Below are positions 34,331 to 35,650 of a stretch of 64,000 nt of DNA, piece by piece. A model generated the notes under the pieces. It saw nothing but the letters and a program-made list of their open reading frames with translations, ran no database searches and was not told the DNA's origin. Both the position numbers and the translations under genes were made by a program. Source of the stretch: a virus. Lineage: Duplodnaviria; Caudoviricetes. Position 1 is the stretch's first letter; the number at the start of each line of letters is the position of its first letter. The stretch lies in the IMG/VR virus record IMGVR_UViG_3300026094_000002; one strand, given 5' to 3'.

Positions 34331-35650
34331 TTAATCTACAATCCCAGCCTTTACTGTTTTTAAAATATAGTGTAGTCCAGCGGCATATACAATTGCATAT
34401 ACTGATATATAACCAATTAAACTGGTGAGTGCCATTGGTCCTGTTAAAGATGGAGTTAATGCGTCTGCATGTGTAATAATTCCATGTATTAACCAAGGTG
34501 CTCTACCAATTTCTGTGACAAACCACCCAGCAATAACTGCAACAAACGGGGCTGGAATCATTAATACCAAGAATTTATGAAATAATTTGTTAGTATATAA
34601 CTTTCCTGTCATACGCAAACCAAGTGACATCACTGCTGCCAGTGCCATTAATACACCAATTCCAACCATAACTCTGAATGACCAGAATACACCAAAAACC
34701 CAAGGCTGTTCTTCTTTCGGTGTTTGATCTAACCCGGGAACAATACCGTCGGGGTCATGCTTTAATATGACACTTGCTAAACTAGGTATCCCAACCTCAA
34801 GGTGGTTAGTTTGATTTTCTTGATCTGGAATTGCAAATAGTAAGAGAGGGACATTTCCTGAGGTTTCCCAGTTGCCCTCCATCGCAGCCAACTTAGGGGG
34901 TTGATATTCTAATGTATTCAACCCATGAAAATCACCCACAATAATCTGAGCAGGTGCTGCAAATAAAATTAGCCACATACACATTGATAATGCTTTTTTG
35001 TGTATTTCAACATCCTTATTTTTCATTATAAACCAAGCACTTACGCCGCCCACGACAAATGCACCAGTCAAGAAACTGGCAATTCCCATATGTACAAAAC
35101 GATAAGGAAATGATGGATTAAAAATGGCAGCACTCCAATCAACAACATGAATTGTGTTATTGATTACTTCTATTCCTGCTGGTGTGTGCATCCAAGAGTT
35201 AGCAGCCAAAATCCAGAAAGAAGAAACGAACGTGCCAACAGCAACCATAATTGCTGCAAATAAATGTGTTCCTGCAGGGACTTTATCCCTACCAAATAAC
35301 AACACACCCAAGAACGCAGCCTCTAAGAAGAATGCAGTTATAACCTCATAACTCAGCACTGGTCCAAGAAAATTAGCTGACATCTGCGAAAAGTTGCTCC
35401 AGTTAGTGCCAAACTGAAATGACATTACTATGCCAGATACAACCCCCATGCCAAATGCAATGGCAAAAACTTTTGTCCAGAACCCCGCTAATGCATGATA
35501 CGCTGCGTTACCTGTTTTATAATACAGTCCTTCAAGCAACGCAATAAACGATGCAAGACCGATAGAAAATACCGGAAATACAGCATGAAATGTTACTATG
35601 AATGCAAATTGCAATCTTGATAGTGCTAGTGGGTCAGACAAAAAGTCCAT
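34331..35650 (-). CDS. cydA: Cytochrome bd ubiquinol oxidase subunit I (short Q-loop type)
   Basis: SRLQFA..TFH, FQFGTNW, YEV..AFFLEA, ANSWMHTP, RFVH, QPPKLAAMEG, FRVM, TEIGRAPW. Confidence 0.95.
   Translation of the reverse strand: MDFLSDPLALSRLQFAFIVTFHAVFPVFSIGLASFIALLEGLYYKTGNAAYHALAGFWTKVFAIAFGMGVVSGIVMSFQFGTNWSNFSQMSANFLGPVLSYEVITAFFLEAAFLGVLLFGRDKVPAGTHLFAAIMVAVGTFVSSFWILAANSWMHTPAGIEVINNTIHVVDWSAAIFNPSFPYRFVHMGIASFLTGAFVVGGVSAWFIMKNKDVEIHKKALSMCMWLILFAAPAQIIVGDFHGLNTLEYQPPKLAAMEGNWETSGNVPLLLFAIPDQENQTNHLEVGIPSLASVILKHDPDGIVPGLDQTPKEEQPWVFGVFWSFRVMVGIGVLMALAAVMSLGLRMTGKLYTNKLFHKFLVLMIPAPFVAVIAGWFVTEIGRAPWLIHGIITHADALTPSLTGPMALTSLIGYISVYAIVYAAGLHYILKTVKAGIVD

Follow-up and report, generated by a model that had tools for sequence, protein, structure and literature searches.

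The 64,000-bp stretch of DNA analysed here (the window), taken from the tailed-phage record IMGVR_UViG_3300026094_000002 of IMG/VR, contains on its minus strand, at positions 34331–35650, an open reading frame (ORF) that starts with ATG and encodes a protein of 439 amino acids. On the basis of Pfam, residue mapping and phylogeny, this ORF was assigned as cydA/cioA, the gene for subunit I of a cytochrome bd-type quinol oxidase. Residues 10–436 of the protein matched positions 1–417 of the 418 positions of the Pfam profile PF01654 (Cyt_bd_oxida_I) with an E value of 2.4e-156 and a score of 520.9 bits, the curated cut-off being 26.2. The original prediction for this locus, made before any database search, had described a complete CydA of 439 residues retaining named functional residues of the Escherichia coli enzyme. 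This description was confirmed by the full-length profile match and by alignment of the protein to solved subunits of the E. coli bd-I (6rko_A), E. coli bd-II (7ose_A) and Geobacillus (5doq_A) oxidases.

In these alignments, H22 of the phage protein corresponds to E. coli H19, the ligand of haem b595, and H187 and M328 correspond to H186 and M393, the ligands of haem b558. R326 takes the place of R391, E102 and E110 that of the glutamates E99 and E107, and E380, R383 and W386 that of E445 with the GRxPW motif. The quinol-site residues K252 and E257 are represented by K253 and E258, which lie within the sequence QPPKLAAMEG. None of the 30 phage and 24 bacterial sequences compared departs from the axial haem ligands H22, H187 and M328, and all 11 functional residues that were checked were invariant across the 30 proteins of the phage clade. 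The alignment to E. coli CydA fell into two parts (query residues 6–310 and 300–435 against chain residues 3–310 and 365–499), whereas the Geobacillus subunit, which has a short Q-loop, gave a single continuous alignment. The short Q-loop noted in the original prediction was therefore verified: relative to E. coli, the loop lacks about 60 residues. By all sequence criteria tested, the phage protein is a genuine, intact CydA/CioA of the short-Q-loop type; its haem-ligand, proton-channel and quinol-site residues are complete, and it would be expected to bind three haems and to reduce O2 with quinol. Haem d spectroscopy, which had been proposed as a check, could mislead here, as the haem d signal is reportedly absent from CIO-type enzymes in some bacteria.

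Among the CydA/CioA family features examined, the only one that the phage gene lacks is a neighbouring cydB. A hidden Markov model (HMM) of CydB was built from 11 bacterial genes following the closest bacterial cioA genes and applied to the window and to 14 related phage loci in all six frames, where nothing better than an E value of ~1 was obtained. With the positive controls from Chromohalobacter, Pontiella (Kiritimatiellota) and Halobacterium (haloarchaeal), the same HMM gave E values of 1e-188, 2e-54 and 2e-28, respectively. No cydB was present within 10 kb of cydA in the 14 loci from across the clade, and the Pfam model of CydB found no match in four whole IMG/VR records with phage-type cydA. 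Near the cydA gene of the window there was also no credible candidate for a CydX-like small membrane ORF; the hydrophobic short ORFs all overlap larger genes in another frame. The claim that neither cydB nor cydX stands beside cydA thus held. The suggested search of the rest of the contig was answered in part: no cydB occurs in the window, but this covers 64 kb of a contig of ~305 kb.

Viral records with CydB were found elsewhere. When IMG/VR was scanned with a CydB alignment, seven loci came up, with a GC content of 48–68% and each with a cydA of the long type directly upstream; none of them resembles the phage group described here. The only annotated locus among the seven, L096, comprises the tail-fibre end of a prophage followed by the host genes CinA, ADH, SDR and DUF892. 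Its cydAB genes belong to the host flank of the prophage. The cydA matches in 19 records of a public phage collection, found by tblastn, were likewise read as bacterial DNA and not as phage cargo; the records are either unannotated fragments of 2–11 kb or large contigs labelled Acinetobacter phage MD-2021a. These large contigs (CAKLQH020000001.1, CAKLQF020000001.1 and others) are 44–379 kb long, carry cydA_1, cydA_2 and cyaA, and look bacterial.

A protein search with the phage CydA yielded about 30 clusters of 436–454 amino acids with 69–98% identity, followed by hundreds of proteins of 469–481 amino acids with 69–72% identity from Halomonas/Vreelandella, Marinobacter, Halovibrio and related bacteria. 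A phylogeny against CydA and CioA had been proposed as a check, and a maximum-likelihood tree was calculated from 110 sequences, a set without the characterised CioA of Pseudomonas aeruginosa. The short metagenomic proteins of 436–454 amino acids were monophyletic, with a support of 99 in the Shimodaira-Hasegawa-like approximate likelihood ratio test (SH-aLRT), and their sister group consisted of a Spiribacter sequence and an Ectothiorhodospiraceae metagenome-assembled genome (MAG) (SH-aLRT 96). The phage clade and its sister are nested within a gammaproteobacterial group, and one member of the enclosing clade is named 'cyanide insensitive terminal oxidase' in its source (P0077, Halovibrio, 69% identity). 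ESM Atlas searches with CydA and CioB returned bacterial clusters only, and Halomonas was the only name attached to the cluster of the nearest bacterial CydA.

All phage copies lack a C-terminal tail of ~32 amino acids; the remainder is collinear with bacterial CioA. In the bacterial relatives, cioB directly follows cioA, and in the inspected loci two ORFs of ~560–590 amino acids come next; the order in the Spiribacter MAG (L012:2771-9310) is hemH-cioA-cioB-cydD-cydC. In the closest bacterial relatives, the ferrochelatase gene hemH thus stands directly upstream of cioA, a haem-insertion gene joined to an oxidase operon. The GC content of phage cydA is 39.7%, compared to 36% for the window and 52–63% for the genes of the bacterial relatives. 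Because the clade is monophyletic and nested among gammaproteobacterial CioA-like proteins and because the base composition of the gene has come to match the phage, the simplest history suggested by these comparisons is a single capture from a halophilic gammaproteobacterium followed by long residence in phages. As cioB lies directly behind cioA in the donor lineage, loss of cydB at or after capture is simpler than its relocation.

In every member of the clade whose context was examined, cydA was located among phage genes. The usual gene order in the relatives is nrdB-nrdA-(grx)-glyA-cydA, and adjacency of glyA and cydA was seen in the loci L001, L003, L004/5/6, L091/92 and L093/94. Glutaredoxin lies either between nrdA and glyA or directly behind cydA. 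The gene following cydA varies, being sulfotransferase-like in the window, a glutaredoxin in L093, from which the sulfotransferase-like gene is missing, a metallophosphatase in L005, and small ORFs in L091. In L002 the order is nrdB-nrdA-grx-cydA, with no match to glyA. In the basal member L090 (ENA contig, P0059; 3023–7026), cydA is found near genes for HSP70, HSP20, ClpS, heme oxygenase and a ferredoxin-dependent bilin reductase, so that the oxidase gene is linked there with haem catabolism genes rather than sited behind glyA. The phages of the clade have a GC content of 36–53%.

The ratio of nonsynonymous to synonymous substitution rates (dN/dS) of phage cydA was 0.04–0.11 in the pairs with unsaturated dS, synonymous sites being saturated in most pairs, and 0.03–0.08 for the bacterial genes. 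These ratios indicate that phage cydA is under strong purifying selection, and this, together with the invariant functional residues, argues that cydA is no decaying passenger. As judged from genomic context, phylogeny and substitution rates, cydA is a good candidate for an auxiliary metabolic gene, since it lies inside a phage genome, is derived from a cell and has been kept among relatives under selection.

For a complex of phage CydA with Spiribacter CioB, structure prediction gave an ipSAE score of 0.71, while the best of three controls reached 0.01; among solved complexes 51 of 78 attain that mark, among mismatched pairs 2 of 108. Individual runs shared at least 91% of their contacts, and the predicted local distance difference test (pLDDT) score of the partner was 84. 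The predicted CioB interface on phage CydA comprises residues 63–123 and 399–432; in the Geobacillus structure, the true interface is reportedly formed by the transmembrane helices TM2, TM3 and TM9. As bd oxidase complexes have already been solved, the prediction speaks for resemblance to a known complex and does not demonstrate binding. In the phage clade, the residues of TM9 predicted to face CydB were about twice as conserved as those of the opposite face (entropy 0.53 versus 1.11, permutation p 0.017), and the same pattern was present in bacteria possessing CydB (0.52 versus 0.98). The predicted CydB-facing side of TM9 thus appears to be still constrained, with host CydB as the simplest candidate for the partner and a second CydA as another.

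Directly upstream of cydA lies glyA (35655–36809, minus strand like all genes of this block), encoding serine hydroxymethyltransferase as judged by Pfam PF00464 (E 4e-146), NCBIfam PRK00011 and synteny in relatives. The glyA stop codon at 35655–35657 is followed by CCCA and then by the cydA start codon. A Shine-Dalgarno-like sequence for cydA, AAAGAGGGA, was read from the last glyA codons (35658–35666, minus strand), with GAGG at 35663–35660, 9 nt ahead of the ATG. These signals provide for translation of cydA immediately behind glyA, and there is no gap of promoter-like size between the two genes. Upstream of glyA follow a small ORF of 83 amino acids (36821–37072), taken from the ORF list, nrdA (37062–38780) for the large subunit of a class I ribonucleotide reductase (RNR; PHROG 84, E 7e-149; Pfam PF02867) and nrdB (38803–39912) for the small subunit (PHROG 86, E 1e-66; Pfam PF00268). 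The boundaries of nrdB are those of the longest ORF; other gene callers give 323 amino acids. The 83-amino-acid ORF is missing in strain variants, contigs from runs X3 and X7 joining 36802 to 37062. A scan for sigma-70 promoters found fewer sites in the window than in shuffled sequences, and the T4 late motif TATAAATA occurred twice in the window, which is fewer than expected by chance, and not near cydA. We infer that cydA is probably co-transcribed with the nrdB-nrdA-glyA block.

On its other side, the cydA stop codon ends at 34331, and the next ORF begins at 34327. This downstream gene (33683–34327, minus strand) encodes 214 amino acids and resembled sulfotransferase clusters of the ESM Atlas (features 0.97, structure TM-score 0.67); a Pfam search with it gave no match. 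The coordinates and the ESM Atlas result agree with the earlier description of glyA and a sulfotransferase-like gene as immediate neighbours, at distances of 4 and 3 bp. The sulfotransferase-like gene forms a strain-variable cassette together with an ORF of 193 amino acids (33102–33683, minus strand) that has no Pfam or PHROG match. Next comes a glutaredoxin gene of 82 codons (32857–33105, minus strand; Pfam PF00462, E 1.8e-10; synteny). Contigs from X3 and X7 join 33106 to 34340/34344 and skip both cassette genes, and in these variants glutaredoxin directly follows cydA, as in L093.

Nearly all long ORFs of the window are on the minus strand, and phage genes of this orientation flank cydA over 34 kb on one side and 28 kb on the other, so that the gene is not at a prophage edge. 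They include genes for the class I RNR, an ATP-dependent DNA ligase, a GIY-YIG endonuclease, a tailspike-like protein, a DnaB-like helicase, a primase, an exonuclease and virion structural proteins, as well as several PHROG families of unknown function. A CHASE2 adenylate/guanylate cyclase of 684 amino acids (3441–5495), which matches PHROG 35576 (E 3e-207), shows 57% identity to its counterpart in Methylophilales phage Melnitz and 45% to that in Pelagibacter phage HTVC008M. These two phages are the only cultured relatives found, and the identities indicate that the phage is related to T4-like pelagimyophages. A search with its ClpX gave only metagenomic relatives with ~60% identity; the longest contig in the cluster of the phage's own ClpX has 305,141 bp, which points to a jumbo-sized genome. 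Megablast with 10 kb around cydA found no match in the public phage collection.

A stretch of 3.1 kb around cydA was present in sequencing runs of nine studies, whose sources are labelled soil, lake water, aquatic, freshwater sediment, brine, food and marine plankton metagenomes; the last few of the listed metagenomes contain merely small shares of the stretch. The junction 34327/34331 is bridged by X3 record 10, and the junction 35650/35655 by X3 record 12 and X6 record 20, all of them contigs of other studies. As far as contigs can show, chimerism is therefore excluded, and the phage context and sound assembly that the original prediction had presupposed are supported by the phage genes around cydA and by these junction-spanning contigs.

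Several further genes of the window deserve mention. A full-length ClpX with zinc finger and AAA domains is encoded at 24796–26001, and behind clpX gene calls on an identical ENA contig place ribosomal protein S21 and then an HSP20 chaperone (~23986–24700). A SegE-like GIY-YIG homing endonuclease (27920–28786) is located between the ligase gene and a virion-protein-like gene of 639 codons, and related phages have similar endonucleases a few kb from cydA. A PAAR-motif protein of 95 amino acids (32033–32320) is followed by a 693-amino-acid ORF without family match (29952–32033), and this pair is kept in L093 with identities of 64% and 67%. At 42030–43682 there is a gene for a 550-amino-acid radical SAM protein whose SPASM domain precedes the radical SAM core on the N-terminal side. 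A gene at 44429–44755 encodes a small Fe-S biogenesis protein of HesB/IscA type (PF01521), and in L093, too, these two genes adjoin the tailspike-RNR-glyA-cydA block. An Rfam scan of the window found two tRNAs and no other match.

The reading we favour, and consider rather probable, is that phage cydA serves as an auxiliary metabolic gene: its protein would pair with host CydB and keep quinol oxidation going in the infected cell. As the sequence comparisons indicate, cioA was acquired once, by an ancestor of a group of large T4-like phages related to pelagimyophages, from a hemH-cioA-cioB-cydD-cydC operon of a halophilic gammaproteobacterium; only this gene was retained, its C-terminal tail was lost, and its base composition drifted towards that of the phages. 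The gene has since diversified under strong purifying selection and become mostly fixed behind nrdB-nrdA-(grx)-glyA. In the infected cell, phage CydA would insert into the host membrane, acquire host haems and assemble via TM2, TM3 and TM9 with host CydB/CioB, with host CydDC serving for maturation, to give a hybrid phage-host oxidase. Such an enzyme could maintain or raise the quinol:O2 oxidoreductase capacity after shut-down of host gene expression, providing proton-motive force and ATP for replication and re-oxidising the quinone pool. Since bd oxidases have a high affinity for O2 and tolerate sulfide, cyanide and nitric oxide, the benefit would be expected in micro-oxic, sulfidic saline waters and sediments. 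The original prediction had proposed such a pairing with host CydB by analogy with psbA. Purifying selection, the invariant residues and the conserved CydB-facing surface fit this proposal of a phage core subunit joined to host partners.

Several points weigh against pairing with host CydB. The cultured relatives infect SAR11 and OM43 bacteria, and the host might have no CydB, or one distant from that of the gammaproteobacterial donor. The predicted complex may owe its score to solved bd oxidases already known to the prediction model. At the end of TM9, the last 19 residues share only 26% of the consensus residues with the bacterial group, and this clade-specific end could be an adaptation to a CydB other than that of the donor or to another partner. 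The sequencing runs listed for the cydA stretch included no RNA run. Finally, a phage cydB might lie elsewhere on the ~305-kb contig, beyond the 64 kb searched, which we regard as improbable. In that case the phage would possess a complete bd oxidase, perhaps including cydX, encoded by split genes. In phages, the subunits of a single complex are often encoded by dispersed genes, as psbA and psbD are in cyanophages, and a virus encoding both cydA and cydB is on record (PMC12043954). Against a split arrangement stand the lack of cydB within 10 kb in the 14 loci and in the four whole IMG/VR records, the long-type cydA upstream of all seven CydB loci of IMG/VR, the annotated one of which is a prophage host flank, and the gene order of the donor lineage, for which loss of cioB is the simpler explanation.

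Phage CydA might also work without any CydB, alone, as a homodimer on the TM2/TM3/TM9 face or with an unrecognised phage membrane protein, which we consider unlikely; its role could then be O2 scavenging that protects oxygen-labile radical-SAM and Fe-S enzymes instead of energy conservation. The absence of cydB from the window and from every related locus examined agrees with such a role, as do the clade-specific consensus of the TM9 end and the radical SAM/SPASM protein, glutaredoxin and PF01521 protein encoded in the window. The conservation seen on the predicted interface side of TM9 would fit a homodimer on that face too, CydA and CydB sharing one fold, and the classification of Murali, Gennis and Hemp is said to contain CydB-less 'bd-like' branches, OR-N and OR-C. 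Against this stand the 65–72% identity to canonical CioA, which is always accompanied by cioB, the retained quinol-site lysine and glutamate, and the downstream gene of cydA, which differs per lineage and offers no conserved candidate for a partner. Moreover, in E. coli subunit I is reportedly neither stable nor active without subunit II, and a class I RNR, as present in this phage, requires O2. Still less likely, in our estimate, is the specific case of a self-sufficient single-gene bd-type oxidase, formed as a homodimer or with a non-homologous phage protein. If true, the phage would install high-affinity O2 reduction in hosts without any bd oxidase, either for energy or for respiratory protection of its oxygen-labile radical-SAM and Fe-S enzymes, and CydB would be dispensable for a canonical quinol-oxidising CydA. 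A non-respiratory role, as a decoy titrating host CydB, haem or CydDC, as a superinfection-blocking membrane protein or as a haem sink, appears very improbable. The C-terminal tail is gone from every phage copy, the linked genes for RNR and serine hydroxymethyltransferase are unrelated in function, and heme oxygenase and bilin reductase genes lie near cydA in L090, but a decoy would not need the catalytic, haem, proton-channel and quinol-site residues that are invariant in 30 diverged proteins with saturated synonymous sites. That the phage contig contains mis-assembled bacterial DNA, or that a bacterial contig was mistaken for a phage, is a possibility which the present data refute as far as they go and to which we give practically no credence. 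It is true that most cydA matches in the public phage collection, and L096 in IMG/VR, are of bacterial type, but both cydA junctions are bridged by contigs of other studies, phages with 69–98% identical CydA show this gene order again, the GC content of cydA fits the phage and not the bacterial relatives, and ~60 kb of same-strand phage genes surround it.

Phage metabolic genes are known for photosynthesis, methane and ammonia oxidation, and sulfur oxidation, while aerobic respiration is hardly represented among them. The long retention of the catalytic subunit of a high-affinity, sulfide-tolerant terminal oxidase suggests that, where habitats are micro-oxic and sulfidic, phage production can be limited by the flow of respiratory electrons, and that respiration may differ between infected and uninfected cells. 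The clade occurs in saline lakes, brines and soils and was recorded in at least nine studies. Phage cydA also offers a system for asking how far CydA-CydB assembly tolerates a foreign subunit I. In the searchable literature, which leaves most subscription journals outside, we came across no description of cydA being maintained on its own in a clade of large lytic-type phages, and the only viral cyd report found there concerns cydAB of one vent virus (PMC12043954). The gene therefore appears to be an auxiliary metabolic gene undescribed so far, although this is not proof of its absence from the literature. A review of 2025 (PMC12713726) contains a 'not validated' listing in the context of viral cytochrome bd genes. 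The earlier characterisation of a terminal oxidase subunit as a very unusual phage gene is overstated in view of PTOX, of the vent-virus cydAB genes, and of psbA, pmoC and amoC, which make single-subunit metabolic genes an established theme in phages.

The closest relatives by sequence are the CioA proteins of Halomonadaceae, Marinobacter, Spiribacter and Ectothiorhodospiraceae, with which phage CydA is 65–72% identical and collinear over 437 residues, haem ligands, channel glutamates, quinol-site residues and the short Q-loop all being equal. Unlike these, the phage copy has no cioB, cydD, cydC or hemH beside it, lacks ~32 C-terminal residues and has a GC content of ~40% instead of 52–63%. 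The OR-N and OR-C branches share with the phage gene a CydA homologue encoded without cydB; they are reportedly anciently diverged, have lost the quinol site and use cytochrome c or cupredoxin partners. Membership of phage CydA in these branches was considered and rejected, as its identity to canonical CioA is too high, K253 and E258 are kept, and no cytochrome c or cupredoxin genes are nearby.

Functionally, the closest known system is PTOX of cyanomyophages, which is likewise a phage-encoded quinol:O2 oxidoreductase but is not homologous to CydA. PTOX is a single-subunit di-iron enzyme that requires neither a partner nor haem. Cyanophages commonly carry PTOX, and in infected cells it presumably serves as an electron sink (PMC13079714). 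In its presumed mode of action, phage cydA resembles psbA and psbD of cyanophages and pmoC and amoC of large freshwater phages (Chen et al. 2020, cited in PMC11480375; bioRxiv 10.64898/2026.06.18.733297). In each case the phage encodes one host-derived core subunit of a multi-subunit host energy complex, which is under purifying selection and presumably forms a hybrid complex with host partners. Phage cydA differs in encoding a subunit of another complex, a terminal oxidase of aerobic respiration; expression and rapid turnover of the host subunit are features documented for psbA. Cytochrome bd genes on viral DNA are also represented by cydAB of one hydrothermal-vent virus (Langwig et al. 2025, PMC12043954), a single metagenomic virus in which both subunits are encoded by a recent, intact bacterial operon. 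The clade described here, in contrast, carries subunit I only, in diversified large phages of lytic type, and the gene appears to have resided in them for a long time.

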